This document shows positions 828-61,795 of a stretch of 64,000 nucleotides of DNA, one piece after another; the first letter of the stretch is position 1, and each line of letters begins with the position of its first letter. This stretch comes from a virus. The notes beneath the pieces were generated by a model, which saw nothing but the letters and a program-made list of their open reading frames with translations, had not been told where the DNA came from and made no database searches. The translations under genes and the position numbers were made by a program. The stretch spans positions 1,094 to 65,093 of the IMG/VR virus record IMGVR_UViG_2936028420_000001; one strand, 5' to 3'.

Positions 828-1426
828 GATAGCTTCTCCGGTCGGTGATGGTCGGTTGGAGTCTTGGCGAAGATGCCCACGGGCGGCATGCCTTCAGGCA
901 CCTCGCCGCGCACCAGGGGGTAGCCGCTGAAGGGCGCCATGGTGATGCCGGCGGCCGTCCAGGCGGTCCGCACGCGGCGGATCAGTTCAAGCGAAAGGTT
1001 CTGGTCGAGGTCGAAGGTGTGCCAAGCGTCCATGCGCATGGCGATCTCGGCGGCTTCGACCGCGGTGTCCATGTTGGCGAAGACGCCGATCGCCAGCCCG
1101 GTGCGGGTGTGCTCGACGCAGGCGAGGCCATGGCTCGCCCTGTAGCCGGTCTCGGGCTCGATGCAGAGGAACGGCGACCACCACGCTCCGAAGGGCGCGC
1201 GGACGATGCCCTGCACCTCGCTGTGGTCATCCTTGGTGGGGCCGCGCACGCCGAAGCGGCAGAAGGTCCAGCCGGGATAGGACGGATGGCTGGCCATCAG
1301 CGCGGTGTAATCGTCCCATGCTGGATGCTGCGCCGGTTCGGAAGCGGTGGGTGATGGCTGGGGAAGCGATGGGGAACGCCGAACCTTGCCCCATGCCGTC
1401 GCCAGTAACCTCGTGATGCGCTTCAT
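824..1426 (-). CDS. Hypothetical phage protein
   Basis: Start reassigned to MKRITR (ATGA overlap with upstream stop at 1423). Confidence 0.7.
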   Translation of the reverse strand: MKRITRLLATAWGKVRRSPSLPQPSPTASEPAQHPAWDDYTALMASHPSYPGWTFCRFGVRGPTKDDHSEVQGIVRAPFGAWWSPFLCIEPETGYRASHGLACVEHTRTGLAIGVFANMDTAVEAAEIAMRMDAWHTFDLDQNLSLELIRRVRTAWTAAGITMAPFSGYPLVRGEVPEGMPPVGIFAKTPTDHHRPEKLS

Positions 1427-1719
1427 GCGGCTACCCGCTGATGCCGAGCCGCGCGCTGATCCTGAAACATCGTCAGCGCGGCAGCTATCCGGCCCTTCTC
1501 GGTGATCTCCCAACTCCTATATGAGTGGAAGGCCGCGCCGCCGGCCATCAGAGCCAGAAGCAGAAGCCGCACGCCCTCGTATTGCGAGTGAGTGATGCCC
1601 TGCCGGTCAGGGCTAGATCCGATGCCCATGCCGAAGGCTACATCGAAGGTCGTCCCCGGGCTGTGTTCGAGCAAAGCGATCAACGCGCGCTTCTCGCGCC
1701 GCGTCAGAATCCACGCCAT
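1423..1719 (-). CDS. Hypothetical protein, possible winged helix
   Basis: Ends WEITEKGRIAA, wing-like; first gene after the 1720-1988 intergenic region. Confidence 0.55.
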   Translation of the reverse strand: MAWILTRREKRALIALLEHSPGTTFDVAFGMGIGSSPDRQGITHSQYEGVRLLLLALMAGGAAFHSYRSWEITEKGRIAAALTMFQDQRAARHQRVAA

Positions 1720-1988
1720 GGAAATACCCCCCAAAGTCCGGCAGCCGGTATGTGATGGCCCGGCGGCCGGAGGAAAGAATGACCGGCTCCAGGGTGATGG
1801 GCCCGGAGCCGGCTTCGCGCGAATCAGTAAGTGATGCTGACCTAAACACTCTCACTGTCAACGTGAGTATTCTATAAAAAAGTGTGAAGACTCACATTAA
1901 TTCGGGGAACACCGTACGGATACCATCCATACAATCGTCCGGCCTGTGGACAGAGAACACGGCGTTCCGTTGCGGGCATCACGTAGAA

Positions 1989-2264
1989 CTACGAAGCTGG
2001 TGACGATGAGGCTCGCTTACATGCCAACGTCACTGTCCTCGGATCGTCAGGTCGTCCGGCTGTGGTGATAGCGGCACTGGCTCCGCATGTCTTACACCGG
2101 GCGATCAGGATGCCGCAGCACTCGGCCGGATATGGCAGATTTGCGAGGCAGGCTGACTTGGCGCCATGGGCAAGGTCGACGTCGATGCCATTGGGGTGGG
2201 CTGGGTTCGGTGCGCATTGAGCCTTTCGGCCGTTGGTGACGAAGGTGACGTCGATTTTGCTCAT
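1989..2264 (-). CDS. Cys-rich hypothetical protein
   Basis: 91 aa with CC and CKTC motifs; coupled ORF. Confidence 0.65.
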   Translation of the reverse strand: MSKIDVTFVTNGRKAQCAPNPAHPNGIDVDLAHGAKSACLANLPYPAECCGILIARCKTCGASAAITTAGRPDDPRTVTLACKRASSSPAS

Positions 2265-2485
2265 GATGCTTGCGCCTCCAGCATGTCGAAATCTTCCTGT
2301 TCCAAATCCATGAGGGTTCGGGGCGGGTGTTCCACCTCAACGTCTCCACGTCCGGAACAGATGGGACAGGTGCCGTGGTCGACCTCGCCCATGTGGGGGT
2401 GGCCGCAGCCGGGCTCGTAGGTGATGCCGTAGCGGATATCGCGGCCTTCGCCTTGGCAGGCTGGGCACGGTTCGATGACGATCAC
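2261..2485 (-). CDS. DnaJ-type Zn-finger small protein
   Basis: CPACQGEG and CPICSGRG repeats; GTGA overlap start. Confidence 0.65.
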   Translation of the reverse strand: MIVIEPCPACQGEGRDIRYGITYEPGCGHPHMGEVDHGTCPICSGRGDVEVEHPPRTLMDLEQEDFDMLEAQAS

Positions 2486-2685
2486 GGGCGCTGATCTCCC
2501 TGGCTGAACATCGGCTCCGCCTCGGCGAAGCACGCATTGTCGTTGACGGCGGGCTTGCCGAGCTCGCGGAATCGGCCGGCGGCGATGATGAGCTTGCCGC
2601 GAGAGCTCACGACGAAGATCAGGGATGGCGCGGCGGCGAAGGCGCGAGTCATTGCGGCGCGCCAGCGGTCGTGAGCCTCCGTCAT
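2482..2685 (-). CDS. Hypothetical phage protein
   Basis: 67 aa, coupled ORF. Confidence 0.55.
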   Translation of the reverse strand: MTEAHDRWRAAMTRAFAAAPSLIFVVSSRGKLIIAAGRFRELGKPAVNDNACFAEAEPMFSQGDQRP

Positions 2686-2843
2686 GGCTTACTCACTGGT
2701 TCGGAAGCGGTGGGTAACCGGTTCGATCCCATGCACGGACCGCATGTGAAGCGATCCGCCTGGGCGGTTGGGCAGCGGAAGGGCTCCCCGCAACTCTCGC
2801 AGGCCCTGGTAACAAACAACACCGGATTGCGGCTGTTGCTCAT
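2682..2843 (-). CDS. Zn-ribbon mini-protein (53 aa, not in ORF track)
   Basis: MSNSRNPVLFVTRACESCGEPFRCPTAQADRFTCGPCMG...; ATGA overlaps at both ends. Confidence 0.6.
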   Translation of the reverse strand: MSNSRNPVLFVTRACESCGEPFRCPTAQADRFTCGPCMGSNRLPTASEPVSKP

Positions 2844-3466
2844 TTCGGCCTCACGTCGAATTTCTGGAGGATGGCGCGGGCAACACCAACATCAAAACTA
2901 CAGCGCTCGCTATCCGTTTCTAGGCAAGCGCACGTGCCGCCCTCGGACTCGCAAATGACCTTGGTCAACTCGGCCTCGCTCACGCCCGAGCACGCTGCCG
3001 GAGTGAGAGCGTCTGATGACGCGATGCTCTCTGAATACAGCAGGCGAACATCTTGAATGTCGGGGGGCGGCGAATAGAACCCCCACACGCGGACAAGCAC
3101 GTTATCGTCACCTTGCGGCGCATATCCGGTCCAAGCGCATGGCGAAAGCTCGGCGGGAACGGTGCGAGCAGCGGCCCATTTGGCGCCAGCGAAGAACCCG
3201 GACCTAGCAGCCTCGTTAGGCAACATTAGCCCGACCGGCGTGCCCTGCTTATTCCATGACCAGTCATCGTAGGCTTGGTCGCAGCCGCTCGCCCCCTGGG
3301 CAGGTGGTTCGCCAATCGGCGCGCCTTCAGGCCATTTGCTGCCGGGTGTCAGGCCAGCTAAATGAACCTTTTTGCGCATGCAAAGGTTCGTCGCGCAGGC
3401 TTCCTTCGCGAAGCCGCATTCGCAGGTTGTCGCCCCTTGGGCAAGAACGTCTTTCTGTTCGCTCAT
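2840..3466 (-). CDS. Hypothetical phage protein
   Basis: Start MSEQKD via ATGA overlap. Confidence 0.6.
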   Translation of the reverse strand: MSEQKDVLAQGATTCECGFAKEACATNLCMRKKVHLAGLTPGSKWPEGAPIGEPPAQGASGCDQAYDDWSWNKQGTPVGLMLPNEAARSGFFAGAKWAAARTVPAELSPCAWTGYAPQGDDNVLVRVWGFYSPPPDIQDVRLLYSESIASSDALTPAACSGVSEAELTKVICESEGGTCACLETDSERCSFDVGVARAILQKFDVRPK

Positions 3467-3714
3467 AGCGGATAATCCCTTGCGCAGTAGCGGGGCTTGC
3501 GAACCTTCGGCACAACCTCGCAGATGAGGCAGAAGCGATCGGTGCGGCGCCCGCGCTTGACGATGCGCGTGTTCTCCGGTGTGCGGGGATGGCCGGCGGA
3601 GCAGCACTCGCTGACCGGCCGATGGTTGAGACGGCCAGAATTTGGCAACAGGGTCCGGCTAGTGCCGTGCCGAGTCTGCTCGGCAATTTCCTCGAGATCC
3701 TCAAGCTCGCTCAT
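3463..3714 (-). CDS. Small Zn-binding protein resembling an HNH-associated C-terminal motif
   Basis: CSAGHPRTPENT...RFCLIC pattern. Confidence 0.5.
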   Translation of the reverse strand: MSELEDLEEIAEQTRHGTSRTLLPNSGRLNHRPVSECCSAGHPRTPENTRIVKRGRRTDRFCLICEVVPKVRKPRYCARDYPL

Positions 3715-3904
3715 GGCGCACCTTGCCTTTCTGCGACAGGAGGTCGGTGGTCATGCCCCTCAATCGCTCGTAAATCAGCTTGGCGCGGTGACGATTCCGC
3801 TCGGTCTTGAAGGCGACAGACAGGTATCTCCGAGCGTCACCGATCGGCATGGAGACGATCCTGTGGTTGATGTCGGCGATGCCGGTGCTCTTGCGCTTCG
3901 CCAT
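3701..3904 (-). CDS. Hypothetical basic protein
   Basis: MAKRKSTG... start by TGATG overlap. Confidence 0.55.
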   Translation of the reverse strand: MAKRKSTGIADINHRIVSMPIGDARRYLSVAFKTERNRHRAKLIYERLRGMTTDLLSQKGKVRHERA

Positions 3905-4068
3905 CACATCACCGCCCTGACGCGATCGATGACGGTTTGATCGTTGAGCGGAGGGATTGCCACTTGCAGGCCCCACGACTTGCCGGCCTCGAAAGCCTTG
4001 TCCCAAGCGAGGGTGGCGCCGAGCAGCAGTCCAGCTACAAAGGCGATGGTGACACACAGGATCAGCAT
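3904..4068 (-). CDS. Small membrane protein
   Basis: N-terminal hydrophobic helix; GGAGG RBS. Confidence 0.6.
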   Translation of the reverse strand: MLILCVTIAFVAGLLLGATLAWDKAFEAGKSWGLQVAIPPLNDQTVIDRVRAVM

Positions 4069-4769
4069 GCTAGTTCCTCCGGTGATGCGGTGGATGGTTC
4101 GCTCTGTGATGGGTAGTCTCCGGGCCGTTCGAGCGATCGACGGCATGGTTGAATCCAAGTGAAGCGGGTGCCTTCGGCGCCGTCATTGAGCCACACCAGC
4201 CAGCAATAGGCGGTGGCGGTCGATCCCGTCGCGGTCAGCCGGCCTTTGACCATCGGCACGCGCTCGGTGAATTGAGCGACGATCGAGGGCGGCGCGACCT
4301 TGAACAGCTTCTCGTACCGCCCGACGCTTTCGAGGAAGCTGGTGCGAACAAGCATGGCGATGCCCTTCCAGCCCGGCACGGCGAATGCCTGCTGGATGAA
4401 GCGCTCCGCCGATTTGAAGGGCGGATTGGTCACGATAAAATCCGCCGGCCACGTTGGCTCGCCGAACAAGAAATCTGTCACTTTGGCGCCGATGCCATAG
4501 TCGAAGATGTCGCTGGCGAGCACTGAGCCGAAATACTCGGCGAGCGGTCGCGACATGTCGCCCATGCCACATGCAGGATCCCAAGCGGCCATCCTGCGCA
4601 GACGCATCCGGGCGATCTCCGGCGCGAGAGCGTATTCAGGCATCAGGACGTGCTCGATCAGGGCGCGCGTTGCCCATGGAGGTGTCGGGAAGAAATCGAG
4701 GCTGTCATTCGGCTCGCTTCGATCCTCCATGACCGACCGCCCCCCGGAGGGACGGAAGGTCTCAGGCAT
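4062..4769 (-). CDS. Orphan SAM-dependent DNA N6-adenine methyltransferase
   Basis: DFFPTPPW, motif I WDPACGMG, motif IV IVTNPPF; start at 4769 or 4730. Confidence 0.85.
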   Translation of the reverse strand: MPETFRPSGGRSVMEDRSEPNDSLDFFPTPPWATRALIEHVLMPEYALAPEIARMRLRRMAAWDPACGMGDMSRPLAEYFGSVLASDIFDYGIGAKVTDFLFGEPTWPADFIVTNPPFKSAERFIQQAFAVPGWKGIAMLVRTSFLESVGRYEKLFKVAPPSIVAQFTERVPMVKGRLTATGSTATAYCWLVWLNDGAEGTRFTWIQPCRRSLERPGDYPSQSEPSTASPEELAC

Positions 4770-5139
4770 TGCCGCCCTCGGTGGCTGCAATGAAAGCGCG
4801 ATCCGGATTTTTGTGGGCGAGGATCTGATAGGTGCCGCCCATGACCATGCGAAGGAAGGCGTTGATACCCTCAACCTTCTCGTCGATGGTGGTCTCGCTA
4901 TTATCCAGATCGCTGGCGAGCATGTTGCACACTGCCGTGGCGAGCCCTTGCATGGTCTGCTCCAAAGGAGTGTCCATGTTGAACTCGTGCGCACCCCAGC
5001 GTGCCGCGGCCGGCAGGATTGCCAGCATTGCGCGCGCCGTTACTCCGCGTTGACCGGGCTCAGAAACGCTCGGCTCGATCGCCGCTCGCATCTTGCCGAT
5101 GCCGATCTCGACATCGGACAGTTTTACCGTCTTGGGCAT
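4762..5139 (-). CDS. Hypothetical protein (first gene after cro)
   Basis: AAGGA RBS; 125 aa. Confidence 0.7.
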   Translation of the reverse strand: MPKTVKLSDVEIGIGKMRAAIEPSVSEPGQRGVTARAMLAILPAAARWGAHEFNMDTPLEQTMQGLATAVCNMLASDLDNSETTIDEKVEGINAFLRMVMGGTYQILAHKNPDRAFIAATEGGNA

Positions 5140-5219
5140 TGGTCGTCCTTTTTGGTGATGGTCAAAAAGTCGATGCTCGATCAGGTCCGGGTGATGGCCG
5201 GGCAAGATCGGAGGTTGCA

Positions 5220-5843
5220 TTACGCCTTTACAAAATTGGTTTCGTCTATGCCGCCTTGGGATGAAGGCGGCGCCATCGACACGTTATTCACAGGCTGGAA
5301 CTGCACAAAATCGTTGGCAGTCACTTCACCATTGGTGACAGCGAAGATCGCTTCCAGCGCGCGCTTGCGCGGCATGGCGCGACCGTAGCGCCAGCTTTCT
5401 ACTGTTCGATCAGAGACATTGATGCCAGCAGCAATCATCTGGTCGGCAAACTTCTGGTTGCTCAACGATTTCGCTTCCAGCCAATTGGAGAAGGTGGTTC
5501 GCATCGGTTTCTTCTCGCTTCCATTGACGCGCTGCGGGTAGTGCAAATCGAGATGACAGCTCCGGCACAGCCACACCACCAAACGGGGCTGGCTATAGTC
5601 AGGATGATGCATCTCAGTGCTGGTGTTTCCGCATTTACACGGTTGCGGAACGAGCGTTCCGCGCTTCCTAGATCGCTTTGAGGAAGCTCTGGTGCGCCGC
5701 CGCGCCTTCTGCTCTGGCGTTAGCGGGTGGGTTTTCCGCCATTCCCGCTGGTATGCGGCGTGGCAGGCCCGGCAAAGGCCGCCAAGCGGTAGCACGCGAT
5801 CTAGCGGCTGTTGGCATCCCGAACAAAGCTGGCTGCGCGCCAT
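5220..5843 (-). CDS. HNH/Zn-finger domain fused to Cro-like HTH regulator
   Basis: N-half CxxC...CxxCH and PCKCG...HHPDYSQP..VWLCRSCH; C-half (from Met at 5504) XRE/Cro HTH ...VSDRTVESWRYGRAMP...TNGEVTANDF. Confidence 0.75.
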   Translation of the reverse strand: MARSQLCSGCQQPLDRVLPLGGLCRACHAAYQREWRKTHPLTPEQKARRRTRASSKRSRKRGTLVPQPCKCGNTSTEMHHPDYSQPRLVVWLCRSCHLDLHYPQRVNGSEKKPMRTTFSNWLEAKSLSNQKFADQMIAAGINVSDRTVESWRYGRAMPRKRALEAIFAVTNGEVTANDFVQFQPVNNVSMAPPSSQGGIDETNFVKA

Positions 5844-5886: not shown

Positions 5887-5915
5887 GAACCTAAGCTATA
5901 TCGGTTAAGGCGTCA
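5887..5915 (-). promoter_or_regulatory. Leftward sigma70-type promoter (PR-like) with GATATAG operators
   Basis: Minus strand TTGACG-17 nt-TAGGTT; GATATAGCTT boxes just upstream of -35 and in spacer/-10. Confidence 0.7.
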
Positions 5916-5925
5916 ATAAGCTATA

Positions 5926-6105
5926 TCACTTATTTTCCGGGACCTCAGCGGTCTTCGCAGCCTCGCGTCGTTCCAACTCGTTTTCTGCGGCCTCGCGAAG
6001 GAATTGCGACCTTTTGTTCTTTCCCATGAGGGCGTCGATACGCTCGATCGTTCGCTCGGACAGCCGAACGATGATCGGTTTCACGCTCAAAGAAGGCCGC
6101 CCCAT
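5926..6105 (-). CDS. Ribbon-helix-helix (Arc/Mnt/CopG-like) repressor
   Basis: MGRPSLSVKPIIVRLSERTIERIDALMGKNKRSQFLREAAENELERRE: alternating beta strand plus RSxFLRxA helix; start 6105 (track gives 6144). Confidence 0.8.
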   Translation of the reverse strand: MGRPSLSVKPIIVRLSERTIERIDALMGKNKRSQFLREAAENELERREAAKTAEVPENK

Positions 6106-6156
6106 ACGGCGAGAACTACCCGATATAGGAAAGTTCATCAACAAGCACTCCGAATT

Positions 6157-6201
6157 AAACGATATAGCTTAGTTGACACTATAAGTGATATAGTTTATAC
6201 A
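6157..6201 (+). promoter_or_regulatory. Rightward sigma70-type promoter (PL-like) with GATATAG operators
   Basis: TTGACA-17 nt-TATACA; CGATATAGCTTAG upstream of -35 and GTGATATAGTT in spacer. Confidence 0.75.
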
Positions 6202-6325
6202 TTCAATATCAGGTCGCCATCACAGGGCTCATCACAGTCCGCATCACACGGTCTGATCGCCGCGGCGGGAGGGTGCATCACCACCCTCCACCGGGTGCCA
6301 CCATCACAACCAATGGAGCAGCCCC

Positions 6326-6670
6326 ATGACAATTGGCTCCAAATCCCCTGAGACCATCCTTCGTGAAGCCCTCGTCCACGCCCAGGACGAGCTTAAGCGC
6401 GTGAACGACCACTACGCCTGCGTTCGCCCGGACGTGCGCGGCGTCGTCGCTGAGGCTCTCGCGGCCGTCCATACGCCGAGCACGGGGAGCGATGAACTGA
6501 TCCCGGCCTTGGATCTGATCGCTGTTATGGCCGGTCAGGCGTGGCTCGACATGACCGGGCACGGCGACGTGACCGAGATGCAGCGTCGGCACACGGTCGG
6601 CCGCATGATCGGCATCAAGAACCTGCTGAACGACGTCATCCTGCCGCGGATCAAGGGGGCGCAGTCGTGA
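6326..6670 (+). CDS. Hypothetical phage protein
   Basis: GGAG RBS, high GC3. Confidence 0.75.
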   Translation: MTIGSKSPETILREALVHAQDELKRVNDHYACVRPDVRGVVAEALAAVHTPSTGSDELIPALDLIAVMAGQAWLDMTGHGDVTEMQRRHTVGRMIGIKNLLNDVILPRIKGAQS

Positions 6671-6885
6671 ACACCTCCCTGCAGGCCGCCGGCCGCCTCA
6701 ACTGGCCGCGCTTTGATAGCTACCCGTTCCGCGTGATCGTCCGCGGTCGCTCCGGCGAGCAGTGGACCGTGCTCGAGATATTCGAGTGGTCGAACGAGGA
6801 GGGCGCCCACCGCGTCGGTCTCGAAACCATGGCGGACTATCCGGCTCTCGATGAGGTTCACTACTACGTCGGCGAGGTGGCGTGA
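6667..6885 (+). CDS. Hypothetical phage protein
   Basis: GTGA overlap start. Confidence 0.65.
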   Translation: MNTSLQAAGRLNWPRFDSYPFRVIVRGRSGEQWTVLEIFEWSNEEGAHRVGLETMADYPALDEVHYYVGEVA

Positions 6886-7088
6886 TGCAGAAGCCCTGCT
6901 CATTTTGCGGCAAGCGCCACTTTTTCAACGGCGATTGCCCCGGTGGAACGCTTCCAGGGACCGGCGAGGATATCGCCGGTCTCCTCCGCCAGAAGGCGGC
7001 GGCGCCGATCAAGCCCAGCAAGCCACAGAAGCCGGCCGATATCGGCCTGTTCAGCGACGAGCGGGATCAGACGGAGTTCAAGCTGTGA
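6885..7088 (+). CDS. Small Cys-containing protein
   Basis: CSFCG..H....C; coupled ORF. Confidence 0.6.
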   Translation: MQKPCSFCGKRHFFNGDCPGGTLPGTGEDIAGLLRQKAAAPIKPSKPQKPADIGLFSDERDQTEFKL

Positions 7089-7258
7089 CCCACAACCTGA
7101 AGGGCGGCATCGGTCCGCTCAAGATCTTCCACATCGGCCAGATGACCTACACGGTCGAGCGCAACGGCAAGGTGCTCGATACGGTCGAAGGCATGAACAA
7201 TGCCTATCTGGCGGCGGAGCGCATCATCGCTCAAGACAAGGTGGAGCAGCAGTCATGA
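7085..7258 (+). CDS. Hypothetical phage protein
   Basis: GTGA overlap start. Confidence 0.6.
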   Translation: MTHNLKGGIGPLKIFHIGQMTYTVERNGKVLDTVEGMNNAYLAAERIIAQDKVEQQS

Positions 7259-7374
7259 GGAGTAGCCCTCACTGCCGCAACTGCGGCTCCGATCATGTCG
7301 GGCCCTACTACTGTGAGGATTGTGGATTCGACGGGATCAGTGTGCCTGAGACCGAAAGCGAGGAGGAACAATGA
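7255..7374 (+). CDS. 39-aa Zn-ribbon protein
   Basis: CRNCGS...YCEDCG; ATGA overlaps. Confidence 0.55.
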   Translation: MRSSPHCRNCGSDHVGPYYCEDCGFDGISVPETESEEEQ

Positions 7375-7607
7375 CCACCAAGGCCCAGCATCTCCAAGTG
7401 ATCCGCCGCTATGCGGACGTGCGCGGCTCCGCCGGCAGCACGAACGATGCACTCAGGATGCTCTTTGTCCGTCGCGGGATCGAGCGCACCTTGACGCCCG
7501 ACGCGATCCACGAACTGGCAATGATCCTGATCCGCAACAGGATGCTTCACAACCGCTTTGCGGCCGAGAGCCGCAAGCACCACAGGAGAGCGCAGCTCAT
7601 TGCTTAG
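7371..7607 (+). CDS. Hypothetical phage protein
   Basis: GGAGG RBS; coupled ORF. Confidence 0.65.
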   Translation: MTTKAQHLQVIRRYADVRGSAGSTNDALRMLFVRRGIERTLTPDAIHELAMILIRNRMLHNRFAAESRKHHRRAQLIA

Positions 7608-7693
7608 GTTCACCTTAGAGACTACCGCGCTGACGATCGCCATCACGATCATCATCGTCGGGACACTGGCTTAACCATCACAGGGACCATCAC

Positions 7694-8806
7694 ATGCCCA
7701 CCATCACACTACGCAACCAGCAGACGCTGGATAATTGGCGCAAGCGCCTCGCCGGCGAGGAGATCAAGACCTACGAAGCCGATCCAGACATTGGCTATTA
7801 CCGACTTCGCAAGAAGGACATCAAGACCAACGAGGTCTGGTGGACTCCGGTTGCCTACTTCATCGACGGCGGCAAGCTGGTCGGCGTGATCGGCGACCGC
7901 AACATGAACGAGCGTGAGATCGGCGATTTGTGGCACTCGGTTTCCGCGTATCCGATTCCGGAGGAAATCTTCTTCGCCTTCGAGGATCTAGTCGAGGTGC
8001 CGAATGCGGACTGGCCGGCCGGCCTGCGCGGCGAGCCGAAGCGCCCGCCGTTCGCGAGCAAGGCCGAACCGACCGCGACGCACACCCAGGTGGCCGGCAT
8101 CACTGGCACAGCGGTCCCCGCCGCCAACCGCGAGGTCGCCCGCTCCGACAACGCTCCGCCTGCCGAGGAGGCGATACCGCTCGACCAGCAGCACAAGACG
8201 GCAATCGACAATGCCATCGCCGCTGCGCCGAAGGCGGTACCGACCACGGCGGAGGAGGCGGCCCTGGCCGAAGGCTCCAAGAACCGGATTGCCGAGCTGC
8301 GCCTCGCTGCAGCAAGGGACGGCAAGGCGCTCTACGAGCCGATGTACCGTGCCTACACTGCGGAGCAGAAGAAGTGGTCTCCGTTGATTGCCGCTGCCGA
8401 GACTGCGGAGAAGGCGCTGGGCCGGTTGGTGCTGACCTTCCGCGAGAACGAGCGCAAGCGCGTCCTCAAGGAGCAGCAGGAGGCGGCCGCGAAGCAAGCC
8501 GCGATCGACGAAGCCAACGCGCGCGCTGCCGACCGTGCCATCGCCGCCGGCAAGCCTGAGCCCGCGCCGGTGGTTGTCGAGACGGTAGCGCCCGCAGCGC
8601 CGGAGCCGGTCAAGCCGACCTATGGCACCCGCAGCGTCAAGGCCGAGCTCAAGACCCACCTCGACGAGATCACCGACTACGATGCGGTCTACGCCTACTT
8701 CAAGGGCACGGATCCGGTGAAGGCGTTGCTGACCACGTTGGCAAAGGCGGCCATCACCGCCGGCCGCACCGTGCCCGGCACCAAGACGAGGGAGGGCCTG
8801 ATCTAA
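7694..8806 (+). CDS. Coiled-coil phage protein (possibly Gam/Gp157-like recombination accessory)
   Basis: 370 aa, long Ala/Glu/Lys helical C-half; heads recombination module; function by context only. Confidence 0.6.
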   Translation: MPTITLRNQQTLDNWRKRLAGEEIKTYEADPDIGYYRLRKKDIKTNEVWWTPVAYFIDGGKLVGVIGDRNMNEREIGDLWHSVSAYPIPEEIFFAFEDLVEVPNADWPAGLRGEPKRPPFASKAEPTATHTQVAGITGTAVPAANREVARSDNAPPAEEAIPLDQQHKTAIDNAIAAAPKAVPTTAEEAALAEGSKNRIAELRLAAARDGKALYEPMYRAYTAEQKKWSPLIAAAETAEKALGRLVLTFRENERKRVLKEQQEAAAKQAAIDEANARAADRAIAAGKPEPAPVVVETVAPAAPEPVKPTYGTRSVKAELKTHLDEITDYDAVYAYFKGTDPVKALLTTLAKAAITAGRTVPGTKTREGLI

Positions 8807-8859
8807 CTACCGACTACCCATCACCACAAAATCCATCACATCATGCAAGGGACCATCAC

Positions 8860-9507
8860 ATGCCCGGCTATATCGTTATCGACGTCGAGACCAGCGGCCT
8901 CTACATCTACAAGAACGCCGACGGCACACCACACCCGGCCGACGCCCCGGATCAACCTCGCCTCGCCGAACTGGCGATGATCTTTTGCGACGACGATTTC
9001 AACGTCGAAAGCGAATATCAGGCCTACATCAAGCCGGACGGCTGGGTCATGGACCCGGCGGCGAGCGAGGCGAATGGCATCCTGACCGACTTCCTGCACG
9101 AGCACGGAGTTCCGGTGAAGGAAGTTCTCGCTAGCTATAGCGCCGCGATCCTCGACGGTCGGATCGTTGTGGCTCAAAATGCCCAATTCGATTGCAAGTC
9201 GATGCGCGGCGAACTGCGGCGCGAGGGCTTCGACGATCTGTTCGAGCAGACGGCAAATATCTGCACCATGCGCAGCGCCATGAAGCTGGTGCCGAAGGTG
9301 AAGAAGCTCAACGGCAAGGGCGGATTCCCGGGTCTTGTCGACGTCGCCGCGCATTTCGGCATCGAGATCGGGAAGCAGCACTCGGCCCTCGATGACGCTC
9401 GCGCCGCGGTGGAGGTGGCGAAGCGCCTCAAAGAGGCCGGCGTGTTGCTGGCGCCGGACGTGCACCGCGCCAAGAACCACCCCAGCAACGAACCGGTGGA
9501 GGCGTAA
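8860..9507 (+). CDS. DEDDh 3'-5' exonuclease (DnaQ-like)
   Basis: ExoI IDVETSG, ExoII AQNAQFD, ExoIII HSALDDA. Confidence 0.85.
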   Translation: MPGYIVIDVETSGLYIYKNADGTPHPADAPDQPRLAELAMIFCDDDFNVESEYQAYIKPDGWVMDPAASEANGILTDFLHEHGVPVKEVLASYSAAILDGRIVVAQNAQFDCKSMRGELRREGFDDLFEQTANICTMRSAMKLVPKVKKLNGKGGFPGLVDVAAHFGIEIGKQHSALDDARAAVEVAKRLKEAGVLLAPDVHRAKNHPSNEPVEA

Positions 9508-9508
9508 C

Positions 9509-10633
9509 ATGAACGTCCGCACCAAAGTCCCCACCAGTACCGAACAGGTGGTGGAGCAAGTCGCCGCCGCTGCCCCAGCGCATCCGCTTGTGGTTCACCA
9601 GCCGACGGCGAAGGTCTATCCCGCGAAGATCGCCAAGGCGATTCTTACGATCACGCGCGCCCTGCAGCCGGTCGCGAAGGCGGGCACCAACACCTTCCAC
9701 AAATACCAGTACCCGAAGTGGGAGGACGTGCTCGACGAGCTCGGCCCGAAGATGTCGGAAGGCGGTCTCATCATCCAGATGGACGAGGTGAGCCATGCCG
9801 GCTTTCAGGACGGCCGCATGATGGAGGTGACCTACGAGTTCACCATCATCAACGAGGACGGCGATTGCTGGCCGGACAAGCCGCACCTGACGCAAATGTG
9901 CAAGCTGGTCGATAACAAGGGCCAGATTGACGACAAGGCCGCCTCGAAGGCCCACACCCAGGCGCACAAATATTTCCTGATGCAGTTGTTCAAGATCAGG
10001 ACGCGCGACATGGCGGAGGCGGATCAGGATGGCGATCAGCCCGAGCAGCAGGCACCGCGCAAGCGCCCGGTCCCGACCTCGACCGGCAAGGTGGCGCCGC
10101 ACTTCATCAAGACAGTGCAGGGCGATACCGCGCGAACCTGGGCGGAGCGATTCCTCGGCTTCTTCGCCAAGGCCGAGACCGAGCTCGAGTGCGAGCAGTG
10201 GGACAAGCTCAATGACGGCCTGCTCACGGAACTGAGCAACAAGGCGCCGGACACGTTCAATGCGGTGGTCGACGCCATGAACGCAAAATTGGAGACCTTT
10301 GCGAAGAAGGCCGAGATCCCCGAGACCAAGGTCGACCCGATCAGCAGCGGGCCGAGCACCTTCCCGGGCGACAAGCCGCTGCCGAAGACGGACATGGCGG
10401 GCGACATTCCGGGGTTCCTGCGCCGCGCGCCGGCGCTGTCCGCAGACGAACAGGCGTGGCTGCACGGCCTCGGCGGAGCGTTCTCCGGCTGTGAGGACGT
10501 CGAAGGCCTCGCCAAGCAGCAGGCGCGGCTGATGACGCCGCAGGAGGGCAACGTCTCGGCCGGAGCATGGGCCAAAGCCAACGAACTGCTCAACGAACAC
10601 CTTGAGCGTCTGAACGAGGAGGCGGTGGCCTGA
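9509..10633 (+). CDS. erf: ERF-family single-strand annealing protein
   Basis: GTNTFHKYQYPKWEDV...DKAASKAHTQAHKYFLMQLFKI; start after GGAGG. Confidence 0.8.
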   Translation: MNVRTKVPTSTEQVVEQVAAAAPAHPLVVHQPTAKVYPAKIAKAILTITRALQPVAKAGTNTFHKYQYPKWEDVLDELGPKMSEGGLIIQMDEVSHAGFQDGRMMEVTYEFTIINEDGDCWPDKPHLTQMCKLVDNKGQIDDKAASKAHTQAHKYFLMQLFKIRTRDMAEADQDGDQPEQQAPRKRPVPTSTGKVAPHFIKTVQGDTARTWAERFLGFFAKAETELECEQWDKLNDGLLTELSNKAPDTFNAVVDAMNAKLETFAKKAEIPETKVDPISSGPSTFPGDKPLPKTDMAGDIPGFLRRAPALSADEQAWLHGLGGAFSGCEDVEGLAKQQARLMTPQEGNVSAGAWAKANELLNEHLERLNEEAVA

Positions 10634-11052
10634 TGGGCTTCGCGCTGACCATCATCCGAACCCAAAAGGATCGCGAGGAAGCGATGCTGTGGGTGACGAA
10701 GGCGCCAATCGGGACACGGATAGAGCTCCGTGGCCCGAAGCGCAGCAAGGAGCAGTCCGACAAGATGTGGGCGATGCTCACCGACATCGTGAAGGCCGGC
10801 AAGACCATCAACGATCGCAAGCTGACGACGGAGGAATGGAAGGTCGTCTTTTTGCAAGCGCTCGGCCATGAGCCGGACGTTCTGCCGACGCTCGACGGCA
10901 AGGGATTTTTCTCGCTCGGCTATTCGTCATCGAAACTATCGAAGGAGGAAATGTCGGACCTGATCGAGTACATCTACGCCTGGGGCGCCGAGAACAGCAT
11001 GGTGTGGAGCGACCCTGAACTCGCCTCGTATCAGCAGATGGCGCGCCGGTGA
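10633..11052 (+). CDS. ninB: NinB/Orf-family recombination protein
   Basis: KRSKEQSDKMWAMLTDI...WK...SSSKLSKEEMSDLIEYIYAWGAE. Confidence 0.8.
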   Translation: MGFALTIIRTQKDREEAMLWVTKAPIGTRIELRGPKRSKEQSDKMWAMLTDIVKAGKTINDRKLTTEEWKVVFLQALGHEPDVLPTLDGKGFFSLGYSSSKLSKEEMSDLIEYIYAWGAENSMVWSDPELASYQQMARR

Positions 11053-11417
11053 CCCGCAAGCACATCAGCCTTCGGACAAAGCTCGCTGCCGCGATCTGTC
11101 AGCTATTCCTGACGCACGACGAGGCGGCAGCGCTCTCGGAGGATCAGGTGTTGTTGCTGGTGCATTGGGACCACTATCCGATTCCGCACGCGGAAGGCGG
11201 TTCCGATAGTCACTTCAATCTCGTTGCTGCGCTGGTGCCGGGACACAAGGAGAAAACGGCGAAGATCGACATTCCCGGTATTGCCAAGCGTAAGCGGATC
11301 ACCAAAGCTCACAAAGATTTCCAGCGGCGCCTTTTAGCGCCGAAGGATCAGAGACCGCCCAAACCATCACGTTGGGGCAAGCGCCCGTTTCCATCACGCA
11401 AAAAGGCGAAGACATGA
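11049..11417 (+). CDS. HNH-like nuclease
   Basis: WDHYPIPHAEGG....NL......H..KT. Confidence 0.7.
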   Translation: MTRKHISLRTKLAAAICQLFLTHDEAAALSEDQVLLLVHWDHYPIPHAEGGSDSHFNLVAALVPGHKEKTAKIDIPGIAKRKRITKAHKDFQRRLLAPKDQRPPKPSRWGKRPFPSRKKAKT

Positions 11418-11719
11418 CCATCACCACCACAAATCAGAACAGCGACGACGATATTATCGCCACCACCCTGTTGAACGTCACGATCATGGCGGCCGATCGC
11501 CGTGGCGGCCGGCGCATGCTCAGCGTCGACGACTACAAGGCGTTTCAAGCAATGCTGATGGCGTCGGATGGAATCCGCCCAGCCGTTCAGCATGAGCAGG
11601 AAGTGTCGGCTGTCACTCAGTCGAAGCCGGAGCAACAAGACGCGGCGGCCATCGGAATGGATGCCGTGGCCAAGGCGATCGGAAGCACTGCCGCCACGCT
11701 TGCGCCAAACGCGCTTTAG
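11414..11719 (+). CDS. Hypothetical phage protein
   Basis: ATGA overlap start. Confidence 0.55.
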   Translation: MTITTTNQNSDDDIIATTLLNVTIMAADRRGGRRMLSVDDYKAFQAMLMASDGIRPAVQHEQEVSAVTQSKPEQQDAAAIGMDAVAKAIGSTAATLAPNAL

Positions 11720-11742
11720 CTATTTATCGACAGGAAGATATC

Positions 11743-12006
11743 ATGACGCTCAACCCGATTCACTGTCTCGACCGCAAGGGCCGCCGAACCCCGCGCGCCA
11801 TCCGCAAGACCATCAGTCGCCTCGATTCCAAGATGCGGACCGCGCCGAACGAAACCCGCGGCATGCAGTACGGTCTCCTGATGAGCATGCTCAAGAATCG
11901 GGACGCGCGGATGTTCCTCGGCCGGCAGGGCGATGTGATGAAGGCCTACGGCAAGCCGAAGGCCAAGCCTCGCTACCGGGTTGCAGCCATCAGCCACTCG
12001 GTCTGA
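11743..12006 (+). CDS. Basic hypothetical protein
   Basis: AGGAAG RBS, high GC3. Confidence 0.65.
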   Translation: MTLNPIHCLDRKGRRTPRAIRKTISRLDSKMRTAPNETRGMQYGLLMSMLKNRDARMFLGRQGDVMKAYGKPKAKPRYRVAAISHSV

Positions 12007-12037
12007 CGAAACAACCGACAACCTGAAGGATAGACCA

Positions 12038-12280: not shown

Positions 12281-12477
12281 GCGGAAAGGTCAAGAAACTG
12301 GAATTCATCTTCGGTGACGTCGCCATGACCCTGACGCCGGCCGATCTAGAGGCTGTCATGCAGGATCTGGCGAAGAAGTTTCCAAAGCGGGAGCCGACCT
12401 CTGCCGAGTTCGCCGACGCCTGCATGGAGCGGATGATTGCCCACGCGCGGCCGACACGAACCGTGCTGCACAATTAG
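12277..12477 (+). CDS. Hypothetical phage protein
   Basis: ATGA overlap. Confidence 0.6.
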   Translation: MSGKVKKLEFIFGDVAMTLTPADLEAVMQDLAKKFPKREPTSAEFADACMERMIAHARPTRTVLHN

Positions 12478-12508
12478 CCTGAACGCCGCCCCAACCGGAG
12501 GTACGACA

Positions 12509-54512: not shown

Positions 54513-54584
54513 GTGATGGTCCTTCGTGATGGTGGCCGGCTTGCTTCATCGCTTCGAGGATGGCCTGGGGCCTCGTCGCTGTCG

Positions 54585-55813: not shown

Positions 55814-56421
55814 GGACGCACCTTGCGGGTCCGGCGCACGTTCACGGTGACGTCGAACGCCTTGGCGACGGCAGAGAGCACCAGGGCGATGTTCTGTCGG
55901 TACTGCGCTGGCGGTTCGACGTCGGAGCAGCACAGATCGTCGAGGACGTTCTTGGCCTGCGAGCCGTAAGGGCTGATCGCCTTCATCAGCTTCTCGTAGT
56001 CCTTTCGGGCTTTACGGGCTTTGGTCTCGTACTCCTTGATTCCGTCCGTCTCGTTGGCGAGGCGTTCGAGTGTCTGATCCGATCCGAAGGCGCGCTCGAA
56101 CGACGGCGAGCGTGCGGTGCGGCGCCCCTCGACATGGAATTTCTCGAAGCGGGCCATGACGTAGGCGACACGGCGAGCGGCTTCCGCCTGCAACGGCGTC
56201 AGGTGATTGTGCACCATCAGCCGGCCGATCGAGCTTACGAGCTCACGACTGATCTTGTAGGCGTTGCGCGCCTCCTCATCGAGCGACTTGTAGCGGTGCC
56301 AGATCACGGTTTCACCCCCGCGCTTCTTCTGAGCGCGAGGGTATCGCTTCACGGCTGAGACAGACTTGATCGCTTCGTTCACTGTGATGGCCCCATGGTG
56401 ATGGTGGGAGATGTTGAGCAT
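55810..56421 (-). CDS. Putative late-gene regulator (Q/DUF6456-like)
   Basis: IGRL...LTPLQAEAARR pattern; between replication and packaging genes. Confidence 0.45.
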   Translation of the reverse strand: MLNISHHHHGAITVNEAIKSVSAVKRYPRAQKKRGGETVIWHRYKSLDEEARNAYKISRELVSSIGRLMVHNHLTPLQAEAARRVAYVMARFEKFHVEGRRTARSPSFERAFGSDQTLERLANETDGIKEYETKARKARKDYEKLMKAISPYGSQAKNVLDDLCCSDVEPPAQYRQNIALVLSAVAKAFDVTVNVRRTRKVRP

Positions 56422-56454
56422 TGTGATGGTCTGCCCTTCGTGGTGATGGTTGGT

Positions 56455-56872: not shown

Positions 56873-57180
56873 GGCTTCGCCCTCATGCCTGCCGTGATGG
56901 CTTCTCGGATGATCTCGTGCTCGCGCCAGCGGCGCGCGTCGGCCTCGGTACCGAACACGGGAGGCGGGATGCGCCGCGCCGGCTCCGCGCCGAACTGCTC
57001 CGGTGTGACGTTCACGACGAAGGAATCGCCTGAGCGCATCAGGACGTGGCGCACTCGGGACCGCTCGAAAGCCGCCATGGCTTCCAGCATCTGGTTGTCG
57101 GTCGGCTCCGGCAGCAACGCCTGCTTCGACGGCTTCGGCCGCGCGGATCGGGCGCGCATCGGCTTGCGCTTAGCGGTCAT
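56869..57180 (-). CDS. Hypothetical protein
   Basis: ATGA overlap with replication gene stop. Confidence 0.6.
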   Translation of the reverse strand: MTAKRKPMRARSARPKPSKQALLPEPTDNQMLEAMAAFERSRVRHVLMRSGDSFVVNVTPEQFGAEPARRIPPPVFGTEADARRWREHEIIREAITAGMRAKP

Positions 57181-58765: not shown

Positions 58766-58794
58766 GATGGCCTCGGTGATGGACGAGATGTGGT

Positions 58795-59283
58795 TTAGCT
58801 TCGCGCAAACTCTCCGAAGGCCTCCTTGGCTGCCGCCTGATACGCGGCGCTGGCACCCTCAATGGTTTCGAAATGACCTAGTGACTTCCGCTTACCGTCA
58901 GTCCGGATGCGAGCCTCAAATGGCCGACTGAGAGATTTATTGCTGCGTCGGACGCCCTTCACGCCTGTCAGGCTATCGATCCGGGCCTTTTTGTTTCCCT
59001 CGTTTTGGGTTTTGGTTGCGGCGCGGAGGTTGACCCATTTATTGTTTGTTCTATCGAGATCACGATGGTCAACTTCGCCATCGGGCCACTCGCCTGTCAT
59101 GTAAAAGACGGCGAGCCGATTCAGTCGATAGTGGATGCCGGCGATCTTGACCCGTAGGTAGCCATCGCTATCCGGGCCGCCAGCCGCACGATCGACGACG
59201 CGGCCACGGAGAAAAATCCATCGCCATTCGCCAGTTTCAGCGTCGTAAGAGAGAACCGTCTTTAGCCGCTCTAAGGTCAGCAT
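58795..59283 (-). CDS. HNH-AP2 homing endonuclease
   Basis: VDHRDLDRTNNKWVNLR; TGVKGV...SLGHF. Confidence 0.9.
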   Translation of the reverse strand: MLTLERLKTVLSYDAETGEWRWIFLRGRVVDRAAGGPDSDGYLRVKIAGIHYRLNRLAVFYMTGEWPDGEVDHRDLDRTNNKWVNLRAATKTQNEGNKKARIDSLTGVKGVRRSNKSLSRPFEARIRTDGKRKSLGHFETIEGASAAYQAAAKEAFGEFARS

Positions 59284-59347
59284 TTTGCTACATCCCGTGA
59301 TGGAAGGATGGGACCGGCGGCTGATGAGGCCGCCGGGTAGAGTAGGA

Positions 59348-60160: not shown

Positions 60161-60228
60161 TGGTTTTCCCTGTGATGGTTGCAGATGTGATGGGTAGGGC
60201 GAGCGGGGCGATGGTCCCGCTCGGATCG

Positions 60229-60429
60229 TCAGGTTATCGCGATGTGGACAGGCTTACCGAGCAATGATCCAGACACGCGACAGAAGTCATCACCGACGTT
60301 GAGATTGAGGGTAGCCGGCATGCCACCGGCGACCCCGGAGACGGTCAGCGTTTCGTCGCTTGACTCGGTGATGTCGACAGAGAAATCCACGCCAAGGAAC
60401 GTCCCGCTCACTGTTTTGGCTTTACGCAC
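60229..60429 (-). CDS. Small beta-rich protein
   Basis: 66 aa, inserted between YfdP/Q-like genes. Confidence 0.45.
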   Translation of the reverse strand: MRKAKTVSGTFLGVDFSVDITESSDETLTVSGVAGGMPATLNLNVGDDFCRVSGSLLGKPVHIAIT

Positions 60430-60817
60430 GGCGGGAGTCCCCGTCGATCACGGTCACGTTGCCACGGCCGACGCGGTTGAGATCGCCTTCCTGCTGGCGC
60501 GCCACGGCGGTACCGCGATCGTTGCCCTCGTGGATCAAGCTCATCTGACGCGGATCGGTCCGGATCAGCTTGTTGTCCTCGGTGGCGTAGTAGATCGCCG
60601 TCTTGATGTCCTCGGCCGGCAGCGAGATGCCGATCTTGGCGGAGATTTCGAGCTCGCCATCGCCATCCTTGAGCGGCTTGATGCCGATCTTGAGAGTGAC
60701 GGCGCCGCCCTTGCCGGTGGCACGGACAGCTTCAACGACTTTGGCGAGAGCGGTAGATGCAGCGCGATCGGCAGCGCCGCCCCTCATACTGGCAACGGCT
60801 TCAGCAAATTCGGCCAT
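60422..60817 (-). CDS. YfdP-like partner of DUF2303
   Basis: AVRATGKGGAVTLKIGIKP...DPRQ. Confidence 0.7.
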   Translation of the reverse strand: MAEFAEAVASMRGGAADRAASTALAKVVEAVRATGKGGAVTLKIGIKPLKDGDGELEISAKIGISLPAEDIKTAIYYATEDNKLIRTDPRQMSLIHEGNDRGTAVARQQEGDLNRVGRGNVTVIDGDSRRA

Positions 60818-60880
60818 TTGGTGATGGTCCTTCCGGTGTGGTGGTGTGATGGTGTGATGGTGGGGAAGTGGTTCAGTATC

Positions 60881-61045
60881 TCACACGGCTGGTGAGTCGT
60901 AGAGAGTCAAGTCGCGGTTATCCGCCGTTTCTTCTTGGTTTTCGTAGGGTGAAATGGTGATCGATGGTTCGTCACCATGCAGCAGGGCGATGGCGACGAT
61001 GATGCCGCCGGTTATCATCATGAGGCTGCCGATGAACTCGATCAT
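60881..61045 (-). CDS. 54-aa membrane protein (not in ORF track)
   Basis: MIEFIGSLMMITGGIIVAIALLHG...; ATGA overlap. Confidence 0.5.
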   Translation of the reverse strand: MIEFIGSLMMITGGIIVAIALLHGDEPSITISPYENQEETADNRDLTLYDSPAV

Positions 61046-61377
61046 GGCTTTGCAACCATTCCGACTTGGACGGGGATGCCGCCCTTACCGCAGTAGCCAC
61101 CCAACTCCTCGTGTACAGTGAAACTGGCGGCGTTGTTGGTCTCCGGATCGCAGGGCTTGTAGACGTTGATGACCTTGCCCCACCGCCACGCCATGCAGGC
61201 GGAGCCGATGCACATCTGCGGCGCGGTATAGACCGCGTGGCCAGCGCCGCCAGAGGCATATGGAGGGAGGGAGTGCCATGAAGTCGCGTAGGCGTGGCCA
61301 TCTGCGCTCAGTCCGGTAGCCGCCGCGAAACTCTCCTGACAGCGCTTGGTCTTCGCTTCTTCCTCGGTGACGATCAT
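61042..61377 (-). CDS. Cys-containing phage protein
   Basis: EEAKTKRC...CIGSACMAWRW...GYCG. Confidence 0.7.
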   Translation of the reverse strand: MIVTEEEAKTKRCQESFAAATGLSADGHAYATSWHSLPPYASGGAGHAVYTAPQMCIGSACMAWRWGKVINVYKPCDPETNNAASFTVHEELGGYCGKGGIPVQVGMVAKP

Positions 61378-61613
61378 CGGCCCGCGCTCCCAGGTGTGAC
61401 CACCCCGGTGAACATCGGCTGACCGAAGGCCACGAGCGGCGCGTTTCTTGATGCGTCAATGGTGTTACGCAGCTCCAGCGCGTCAGCGATGCGCTTGAGG
61501 CTGATCGCGATCGAGGCGATTCCGGCGTCGCTATCGATCATGGCGATGTCGGGCTCAAGCCGTTTGATCGTATCGAGATAGGCGTCGACACGTTCTTTCT
61601 CGGGACTGCTCAT
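61374..61613 (-). CDS. Hypothetical protein
   Basis: AISLKRIADAL motif; AAGG-T-CCATCACA-ATG start. Confidence 0.65.
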   Translation of the reverse strand: MSSPEKERVDAYLDTIKRLEPDIAMIDSDAGIASIAISLKRIADALELRNTIDASRNAPLVAFGQPMFTGVVTPGSAGR

Positions 61614-61795
61614 TGTGATGGACCTTGTTGGGTTGCGAACGCGATGGCTGCCTCGATGTCCCATGGCTCGCTGATGGGCGGCAGCTCGACCGTCTCGATG
61701 GGCGTCAGGCCGGTGCAGCCGACGAATTGCGGGCCGTACCAGATCTGAGGCTGGGGACCGGATTGGGCGGGGAGGATCACGAGGAAGGCGGTCAC
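61610..61795 (-). CDS. Hypothetical protein
   Basis: GTGA/ATGA coupling. Confidence 0.55.
   Translation of the reverse strand: MTAFLVILPAQSGPQPQIWYGPQFVGCTGLTPIETVELPPISEPWDIEAAIAFATQQGPSQ

Follow-up and report, generated by a model that had tools for sequence, protein, structure and literature searches.

CsrA/RsmA recognizes multiple GGA motifs, some of them in hairpin loops and one at the Shine-Dalgarno sequence (SD), which lie 10-60 nucleotides (nt) apart, and bridging by the dimer gates the ribosome. The sites of T4 RegA are rich in A and U and lie over the AUG, in early genes only. The L5 stoperators are 13-bp duplex DNA sites for the immunity repressor with the same sequence as the promoter operator, and each early operon leader has one or two lambda-type nut sites (boxB), hairpins recognized by an arginine-rich protein of the N type. 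Closest to the phenomenon reported here are the start-associated sequences (SAS) and their extended form (ESAS) of Cluster K mycobacteriophages, 13-bp asymmetric repeats found 11-19 times per genome directly upstream of starts (Pope et al. 2011, PMC3203893). They mark a subset of genes with large upstream gaps, are absent from the host, are conserved across subclusters and are restricted to non-structural genes (PMC3203893); a survey of 188 genomes published in 2025 treats their role as unverified (PMC12699233). Here we analyzed the heptamer CCATCAC in a 64-kb stretch of phage DNA, called the window below, out of a 67-kb provirus record (IMG/VR record IMGVR_UViG_2936028420_000001). We propose that CCAUCAC acts at the RNA level in translation initiation and is read by a trans factor, an interpretation whose chances we judge to be about even.

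The exact heptamer occurs 57 times in the window against 9.68 ± 3.3 copies expected from dinucleotide-preserving shuffles; the shuffle maximum was 19, and none of the 100 shuffles attained the observed count. Relative to the gene calls, 52 copies are sense and 5 are antisense. A first-pass annotation, made from the sequence alone, had placed the motif always on the mRNA strand, which is correct for the 52 copies and fails for the five antisense ones (at 3901, 25558, 28900, 29940 and 51808), each within a coding region. The windows from −50 to +3 around the starts, which make up 6.5% of the sequence, hold 27 of the 52 sense copies (binomial p about 1e-18). The count against shuffled sequence, by strand and by distance to the start, which that annotation had recommended, thus bears out its observation; its estimate by eye of about 37 copies near starts or in untranslated regions (UTRs) compares with 38 start-proximal copies in our count, and the heptamer is present at every position it had given. 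In the 50 nt preceding starts, CCATCAC is the top enriched 7-mer, above every SD word, the SD words being weakly enriched. The copies are preceded by A or G and followed by A or C, never by T, and the strand bias of one-mismatch variants is far weaker than that of the exact heptamer.

A pure Thr-Ile-Thr codon effect, the trivial explanation that had been put forward, covers a minor part of these copies. Non-coding DNA (6,841 nt) contains 27 copies (3.9/kb), while 25 are coding-sense (0.44/kb) and five coding-antisense. We take 15-20 copies as background because 15 of the coding-sense copies lie in the xCC-ATC-ACx Ile-Thr frame and related complete phages (62-65 kb) carry 12-18 copies each in total, with a comparable coding-strand bias. 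Codon usage alone accounts for roughly these 15-20 internal copies, and the excess consists of about 38 start-proximal copies.

The start-proximal copies are organized in a recurring module, in which CCATCAC is followed by an SD (AGGGA, AGGAG, GAAAG or GAAGGA), a second CCATCAC, 0-1 nt and the start codon. Extra copies often lie 20-75 nt further upstream, sometimes as a hairpin loop, and the copy-to-copy spacing is irregular (8-27 nt). At least 7 copies abut the start codon (0-3 nt). The layout SD-CCATCAC-ATG was seen directly at 7694, 8860 and 54512, and with 1-3 extra nt at 19777, 56421, 60817 and 61613; the same layout had already been noticed at 7694, 8860, 54512 and 61613. A listing of all starts with their upstream gaps gave about 17 marked genes, mostly after gaps of 12-125 nt, and genes whose start overlaps the previous stop (−4/−1 overlaps) are mostly devoid of CCATCAC. 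The marked genes are a subset of the independently starting genes, and among the late genes only the capsid and endolysin genes are marked. Leaders are generally rich in C and A and poor in G. Two gene starts (5133 and 11414) were revised from the motif and the SD, and that at 11414 matches the gene call on the record.

On the plus strand, the leader of the rightward early operon (6217-6307) carries CCATCAC at 6217 and 6301 together with three CATCAC and precedes a gene of 114 amino acids (aa) starting at 6326; one of the copies forms the loop of a GGGAGGGUG/CACCCUCC hairpin. The 370-aa early gene (start 7694) has four copies (7640-7707), that at 7640 in a hairpin loop, those at 7675 and 7687 on either side of the SD AGGGA and that at 7701 in codons 3-5. 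Three copies fill the 53-nt spacer of the DEDDh exonuclease gene (8818-8859, start 8860), the last one touching the ATG. The 101-aa gene P0123 (start 11414) also has three copies (11364-11424), one each in a hairpin loop, ahead of the SD and in codons 2-4 (MTIT, kept in most relatives). One 17-nt string, GGGACCATCACATGCCC, recurs unchanged at 7682-7698 and 8848-8864; it covers the SD, the motif and codons 1 and 2 (Met-Pro). Its presence at the starts of two adjacent unrelated genes, the 370-aa and exonuclease genes, suggests intragenomic copying of the cassette.

All other marked genes lie on the minus strand. Two copies are found on either side of the SD GAAAG of the endolysin gene (19779-19801, start 19777), a pair 8 nt apart before the SD of the major capsid gene (42504-42518, start 42486), and two on either side of the SD GAAGGA of a 172-aa gene (54513-54532, start 54512). 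A 203-aa gene (start 56421) has four copies (56384-56449) and three candidate starts, each after CCATCAC and 1 nt. Single copies precede a 113-aa gene with a GTG start at 56872 (56894-56900, 21 nt upstream and within the 3′ end of the preceding gene), a 76-aa gene starting at 58765 (58776-58782, 10 nt upstream) and a homing-endonuclease-like HNH_3/AP2 gene starting at 59283 (59297-59303, a hairpin-loop copy 13 nt upstream). This last early-operon gene (58795-59283) is probably a recently inserted selfish gene, and even it is motif-marked. The 270-aa phrog_210 gene (start 60160) has two copies before the SD AGGGA (60172-60193), the 131-aa phrog_204 gene (start 60817) three copies around the SD GGAAGGA in a leader rich in C and A (60821-60860), and a 79-aa gene (start 61613) one copy 1 nt before the ATG, inside the upstream gene (61615-61621). 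Nearer the left end, the 123-aa gene with the start revised to 5133 is preceded by two hairpin-loop copies (5155-5197), a layout kept in the related contig L358 described below, and the 3′ arm of the 5155 hairpin overlaps its SD AAGGA. One copy plus degenerate copies lie upstream of a 54-aa membrane-protein gene (4106-4112, start 4068), two hairpin-loop copies upstream of a 98-aa gene (1752-1800, start 1719), and one copy 17 nt upstream of a 94-aa gene, inside the upstream gene (845-851, start 827). Finally, a copy at 1351-1357 lies near the start of a 157-200-aa gene (824-1297/1426) whose start is ambiguous.

RNA structure was predicted by partition-function folding with 60 nt on each side. 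The start-proximal copies had a mean unpaired probability of 0.76, compared with 0.49 in their flanks and, close to starts, 0.58 in words of matching composition (p=2e-4). Seven copies (1752, 1794, 5155, 5191, 7640, 11364 and 59297) are predicted to form the 6-8 nt loop of a strong hairpin. When the hairpins before the 370-aa gene were compared between phages as ungapped 16-mers, the loop CCAUCA was invariant and the 5-bp stem was GAUCG, GGCGG or GUCG according to the phage. Three of the five pairs were changed on both sides, as was also the case in 31 of 500 shuffles of this small sample. The compensatory stem changes point the same way as the folding predictions and would favour loop display of the motif.

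Such exposure might be obtained without any reader if the heptamer were only the commonest word of a G-free, C/A-rich spacer style, which keeps SD and AUG unstructured, brings no false starts or SDs, and permits re-initiation by terminating ribosomes. Uniformity would then stem from the copy-paste spread, within the clade, of one successful ribosome-binding site (RBS) cassette. The C/A-rich, G-poor leaders fit with this explanation, and the 17-nt identity linking the 370-aa and exonuclease starts is what intragenomic copying would leave behind. Furthermore, the motifs raise the predicted accessibility of the RBS, because in silico replacement of the heptamers by random genomic 7-mers lowered the accessibility of SD and AUG from 0.53 to 0.47 (p=0.013). 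However, permuting the letters of the heptamer left it unchanged (0.52 vs 0.53, p=0.13), yet the exact order is kept at about 38 sites and at the orthologous sites of four phages whose spacers diverge. The lower exposure of composition-matched words also speaks against a mere spacer, for which hairpin-loop display with co-varying stems would be superfluous. In these models, the G-free composition helps to hold the RBS open and leaves the fixed order of the letters unaccounted for. Since permuted letters keep the RBS accessible, the sequence CCAUCAC itself is probably read by something, and we consider the reader-free spacer to be fairly unlikely.

Placement relative to SD and AUG, predicted single-strandedness, hairpin-loop display and the absence of clusters from host-family genomes support an RNA-level signal tied to translation starts. 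The first-pass annotation had suggested a site for an RNA-binding translational regulator or antiterminator, arguing from the flip of orientation with transcription. The RNA-level, translation-linked part of this suggestion is borne out; the antiterminator part is not, given about 17 individual gene starts and copies abutting the AUG instead of one site per operon leader. The flip itself was observed but is indecisive alone, since the L5 stoperators, which are DNA sites, share this property. It had also been argued that the copies are not Chi or packaging sites, and we agree: DNA words of this type were rejected because the orientation switches with each operon and the copies concentrate in the 50 nt before starts. 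An orientation bias of type III restriction sites, a consideration from general knowledge, was rejected on the same positional grounds.

Sites for a phage DNA-binding protein, acting either as elongation blocks like the L5 stoperators or as tandem heptads of a ribbon-helix-helix (RHH) protein, would also show a strand flip. L5 stoperators look like asymmetric intergenic sites co-oriented with transcription, RHH proteins such as omega bind ATCAC-containing heptads, and a small RHH-like gene is present in the switch region (5.6-6.3 kb). In this region (5890-6195), inverted GCTATATC/GATATAGC repeats surround a small leftward gene, and a TTGACA...TATACA promoter-like site lies directly before the CATCAC-rich leader. 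The operator word of the switch is unrelated to CCATCAC, unlike in L5, where operator and stoperator have one sequence. In addition, 7 bp at an irregular spacing of 8-27 bp make a poor duplex-DNA site, the placement is fixed to SD and AUG at nucleotide resolution, and the motif occupies the centre (loop) of varying inverted repeats, not their arms. We therefore regard DNA-level sites as improbable.

The hairpins and the intergenic position of the copies in long operons would also suit a signal for RNA processing, stability or antitermination, that is, an endoribonuclease site or a nut-like site for an N-type antiterminator or the NusA KH domains. In the processing variant, cleavage or docking would segment polycistronic mRNAs or yield short-leader mRNAs. 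CCAU and UCAC are both YCAY words, some copies are displayed in loops like boxB, and the leader of the rightward early operon (PR) has five CATCAC copies. One hairpin, at 1794, has a 12-bp stem followed by a U-rich tail and scores as terminator-like too. Against this, the sites (about 38) are far too numerous, they occur at individual gene starts rather than in operon leaders, copies abut or overlap the AUG, and no N-like or nuclease gene was recognized in the phage. The only arginine patch found was RRGGRR in P0123, a protein with a low-confidence model. This explanation appears to us equally improbable.

Pairing with other RNAs was also considered. A Bradyrhizobium 16S rRNA does not contain GUGAUGG, the best matches being three 6-of-7 sites at positions without known mRNA contact, and its 3′ end is the canonical GGAUCACCUCCUUU. 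An SD-like, rRNA-pairing enhancer thus finds no support, this 16S rRNA having no complement to the motif. A complementary small RNA encoded by the phage was not evident either: the five GTGATGG-sense copies sit in coding sequence or at a start codon.

Conservation in related phages, another check proposed beforehand, was analyzed through homologues of the 370-aa protein. These led to four motif-bearing contigs with 64-68% identity, L357 and L364 (from two Logan-assembled runs), L358 (JGI metagenome) and L363 (another NCBI assembly). All have a high density of CCATCAC, for example 32 copies in 21 kb of L358 with about 28 sense to 4 antisense, and in all of them the module recurs at orthologous genes, in front of the first rightward gene and of the 370-aa, exonuclease, 101-aa and lysin genes. 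The module precedes erf in two of them; at this place the phage of the window has a 1-nt gap and no motif. In leader alignments, 82 of 111 motif columns are invariant versus 165 of 398 other columns, and the copy-to-copy spacers vary both in sequence and in length.

Beyond this clade, the module was not detected in the relatives examined. It is lacking in homologues of the 370-aa protein at or below 56% identity (L365, L366, L187, L188), and motif clusters were not found in four complete capsid relatives (G403, G405-407) and 36 other IMG/VR records, nor in about 40-45 related viral records in all. Loci reached through the capsid protein (61 viral and 7 genomic) showed no enrichment, and the motif therefore does not follow the structural module; the nearest capsid relative, G403, has a faint signal with 5 of 13 copies upstream. 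A triple-pattern scan of the viral collection returned only in-frame coding repeats (tail-fibre Ile-Thr, His-rich repeats, giant viruses), and the 14-mer GGGACCATCACATG had 115 matches there, none of them in a motif-rich phage. In relatives without the motif, exo and erf either overlap the gene before them or adjoin it, as does the 370-aa gene in L365. From these junctions, we conclude that the 45-60-nt cassettes are clade-specific insertions that uncouple those genes.

The cassettes might instead serve mainly as micro-homology linkers for the exchange of modules by Erf/exonuclease/NinB recombination. The exonuclease gene between them is indeed mosaic, with 81% identity to L363, 71% to motif-poor G403 and 38% to L358, the flanking genes having 63-72%. 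The allele (8860-9507 in the window, 11152-11805 in L358) shares 38-48% identity with those of L358 and L357, and both of these phages have cassettes on both sides of their divergent allele. Linkers would leave unexplained the strand specificity, the register with SD and AUG, the single-strandedness and the presence before non-mosaic genes. As the main function, this is very improbable, and a role at recombination junctions is probably a by-product.

The host is a Bradyrhizobium-like alphaproteobacterium, a soil bacterium, as judged from the 92% identity of the host flank to one species genome of the host family and from capsid relatives within Bradyrhizobium and Xanthobacteraceae genomes. Whether host UTRs are equally enriched had been named as a decisive comparison, and host-family proxies did not show such enrichment. 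Two Bradyrhizobium genomes have 13 motif pairs each per about 8.3 Mb, mostly coding-like, and the window has about 20 pairs in 64 kb. In 401 host-family genomes (about 2 Gb), 52 triples were found, mostly in-frame repeats. The string CCATCAC-N0-1-ATG occurs at about 10/Mb in two close proxies versus about 110/Mb in the phage, and tandem clusters were not seen in the host proxies. Four contigs considered as motif-rich prophages (G002:C96, G013:C28, G136:C7 and G232:C1) were rejected, as they contained isolated pairs or triples. In the last of them (L370, about 10001-10031, minus strand), a chromosomal signal-peptide-protein gene has three CCATCAC in its 5′ leader, the sole leader of this kind seen on the host side.

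These analyses establish the placement, strand, conservation, predicted single-strandedness and clade restriction of the motif. For the trans-read element, we propose that CCAUCAC is a cis-acting mRNA heptamer forming part of self-contained ribosome-binding cassettes, with the order optional hairpin displaying the heptamer in its loop, heptamer, SD, heptamer and AUG. The cassettes would precede genes that need their own initiation: those that open an operon, those for exonuclease, capsid and lysin, and many of the early genes. A sequence-specific trans factor would bind the single-stranded heptamer and thereby set the efficiency of 30S loading. We lean toward enhancement because the capsid gene is marked and the relatives use translational coupling to express the same genes; the alternative would be repression in the manner of CsrA or RegA. 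The factor could be either a host single-stranded RNA (ssRNA) binder with an OB fold, such as ribosomal protein S1 or a cold-shock-domain (CSD) protein, or a phage protein confined to the clade, P0123 being the best choice.

OB-fold ssRNA binders (Csps, S1 domains of ribosomal protein S1) have a footprint of about 6-7 nt. The CSD of YB-1 selects CAUC/CACC, and two copies of ACCAUCAC lie close to the AUG in the 5′ UTR through which YB-1 regulates itself (PMC3458536); CCAUCAC(C) likewise includes CAUC and CAC(C). However, YB-1 is eukaryotic, bacterial Csp specificities are different or weak, and the phage has no CSD. By this analogy, a host OB-fold protein as the reader is a lead only.

Among the phage proteins, comparison of gene contents pointed to the 57-aa P0121 (7085-7258) and the 101-aa P0123 (11414-11719), which are encoded in every motif-bearing contig covering the region and absent from all motif-less relatives; the 54-aa membrane protein nearly fits the same pattern. 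The P0123 family comprises 7 clusters among 5.8 billion proteins and is found only in motif-bearing phages. It has a conserved block LLNV.I.A.(D/E)RRGGR(R/K) with an invariant RRGGR core, and it usually starts with MTIT, which corresponds to ATG-A-CCATCAC. The heptamer before its SD is kept in 7 of 7 DNA sequences, two of them more distant. The AlphaFold model (predicted local distance difference test, pLDDT, 55) predicts a helix, an RRGGRR loop, a helix and disorder, with an arginine patch in the turn; it was too weak for a fold search, and look-ups of P0121 and P0123 in a protein atlas gave nothing usable. P0123 is a candidate reader, possibly autoregulated. In a more specific proposal, which we consider unlikely, the P0123 family, as the best candidate, would bind the single-stranded heptamers flanking the SD and switch about 17 genes, including capsid and lysin, as a block, a private regulon of the phage.

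Several points weigh against a factor reading the heptamer. No reader was identified among the phage proteins examined: homologues of CSD proteins, RegA (PF01818, six-frame search of the record) and CsrA (PF02599, E<=1) were not found in the phage, and Pfam assigned no RNA-binding family to 30 small early proteins. P0123 is rather acidic outside the RRGGRR patch, its model is of low confidence, and shared ancestry confounds its co-occurrence with the motif. CCATCAC is missing from the 5′ UTRs of eight csp genes checked in one host proxy. The 370-aa homologue of L357 has an ordinary SD without the motif, which is thus dispensable at individual genes. Moreover, the evidence on RNA structure is prediction throughout, the host comparisons were made on host-family proxies (flanking gene 92% identical), and the RNA-seq runs searched for this phage DNA gave no match.

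The provirus belongs to a 687-kb contig of the NCBI assembly GCA_040548505.1, where its neighbours are a beta-lactamase-family gene and an integrase. Its DNA also occurs in soil metagenomes. The gene map was drawn with a codon-usage gene caller and PHROG and Pfam matches. A leftward operon (104-5546, minus strand) adjoins the integrase and contains a methyltransferase gene. Beyond the switch region, the rightward early operon (6326-14443, plus strand) encodes the 370-aa protein, the DEDDh exonuclease, Erf and NinB. The long leftward block (minus strand) begins with early and replication genes (62.4-52.5 kb), followed by the terminase, portal, capsid (41494-42486), tail, polyvalent protein and endolysin (18740-19777) genes. 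An open reading frame (ORF) of 4050 aa (19790-31942, minus strand) encodes a polyvalent protein, a type that phages and conjugative elements package, as deduced from the InPase, ResIII, Helicase_C_4 and LPD38 Pfam families on its L358 homologue; its L366 relative has 4633 aa. The stretch 11720-14443 has a lower GC content (about 57%), small rightward ORFs without homologues in any relative and no CCATCAC at starts, and looks like a foreign insert (moron region). Two integrase-family ORFs are present, one of 406 aa at the left end, upstream of position 128 and running off the window, and one of 242 aa near the right end (62448-63176, minus strand), which may be a fragment.

CCATCAC adds an independent start-associated word, in a bacterial phylum different from that of the Cluster K SAS, known since 2011. 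Because it is separate from the SD, it can be mutated with ribosome pairing intact, and its multi-copy, loop-displayed nature suits pull-downs. The close relatives that express the same genes by translational coupling provide natural controls with and without the motif, and the prophage is carried by a cultured host isolate. Should there be a reader, the system would offer a compact, orthogonal translation switch; were this P0123, its fold would be a new one for sequence-specific RNA binding, and the start-associated sequences of phages would gain a mechanistic explanation. If none exists, the case illustrates the extent to which selection on the context of the RBS can fix a word.

The comparison with known systems brings out both sides of the analogy. 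Like the targets of CsrA/RsmA, the cassettes have several short single-stranded motifs, some in loops and one adjoining the SD; however, the CsrA motif is GGA, the phage has no CsrA, and CsrA is a global regulator of the host, whereas the host proxies make no use of CCATCAC. The resemblance to T4 RegA is a phage regulon set by sequence at many translation initiation regions; the RegA sites differ in being AU-rich and restricted to early genes, and no RegA-family match was found here. Like the L5 stoperators, the copies number in the dozens, are asymmetric, occupy short intergenic spaces and follow the direction of transcription, but the switch operators have another sequence and CCATCAC tracks SD, AUG and RNA loops. 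The first-pass annotation had known no described factor for the motif. A described analogue does exist in the Cluster K SAS (PMC3203893), and we regard CCATCAC as analogous to it, not as a homologous member. In both cases, a short asymmetric repeat has one orientation relative to transcription (52:5 here, about 28:4 in L358), lies a few nt ahead of the start codon in a subset of genes (with 27 of the 52 sense copies from −50 to +3), prefers genes after a large gap (mostly 12-125 nt here) and is rare or absent in the host, as judged here from host-family proxies and about 45 viral records. Both are conserved within a lineage at genes of different families, and about half of the sites have an extra upstream inverted repeat. 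They differ in that the SAS 13-mer GGGATAGGAGCCC contains the SD and occurs once per gene, whereas CCATCAC, which matches neither GGGATAGGAGCCC nor an SD core, is a G-free 7-mer flanking a separate SD in 2-4 copies, about 38 in total. The SAS are confined to non-structural genes of mycobacteriophages, whereas CCATCAC also marks the capsid and lysin genes, in a phage of an alphaproteobacterium and thus in another phylum. Finally, Pope et al. found no RNA hairpins for the ESAS, whereas the inverted repeats of the present phage support predicted RNA hairpins that carry the motif in the loop.

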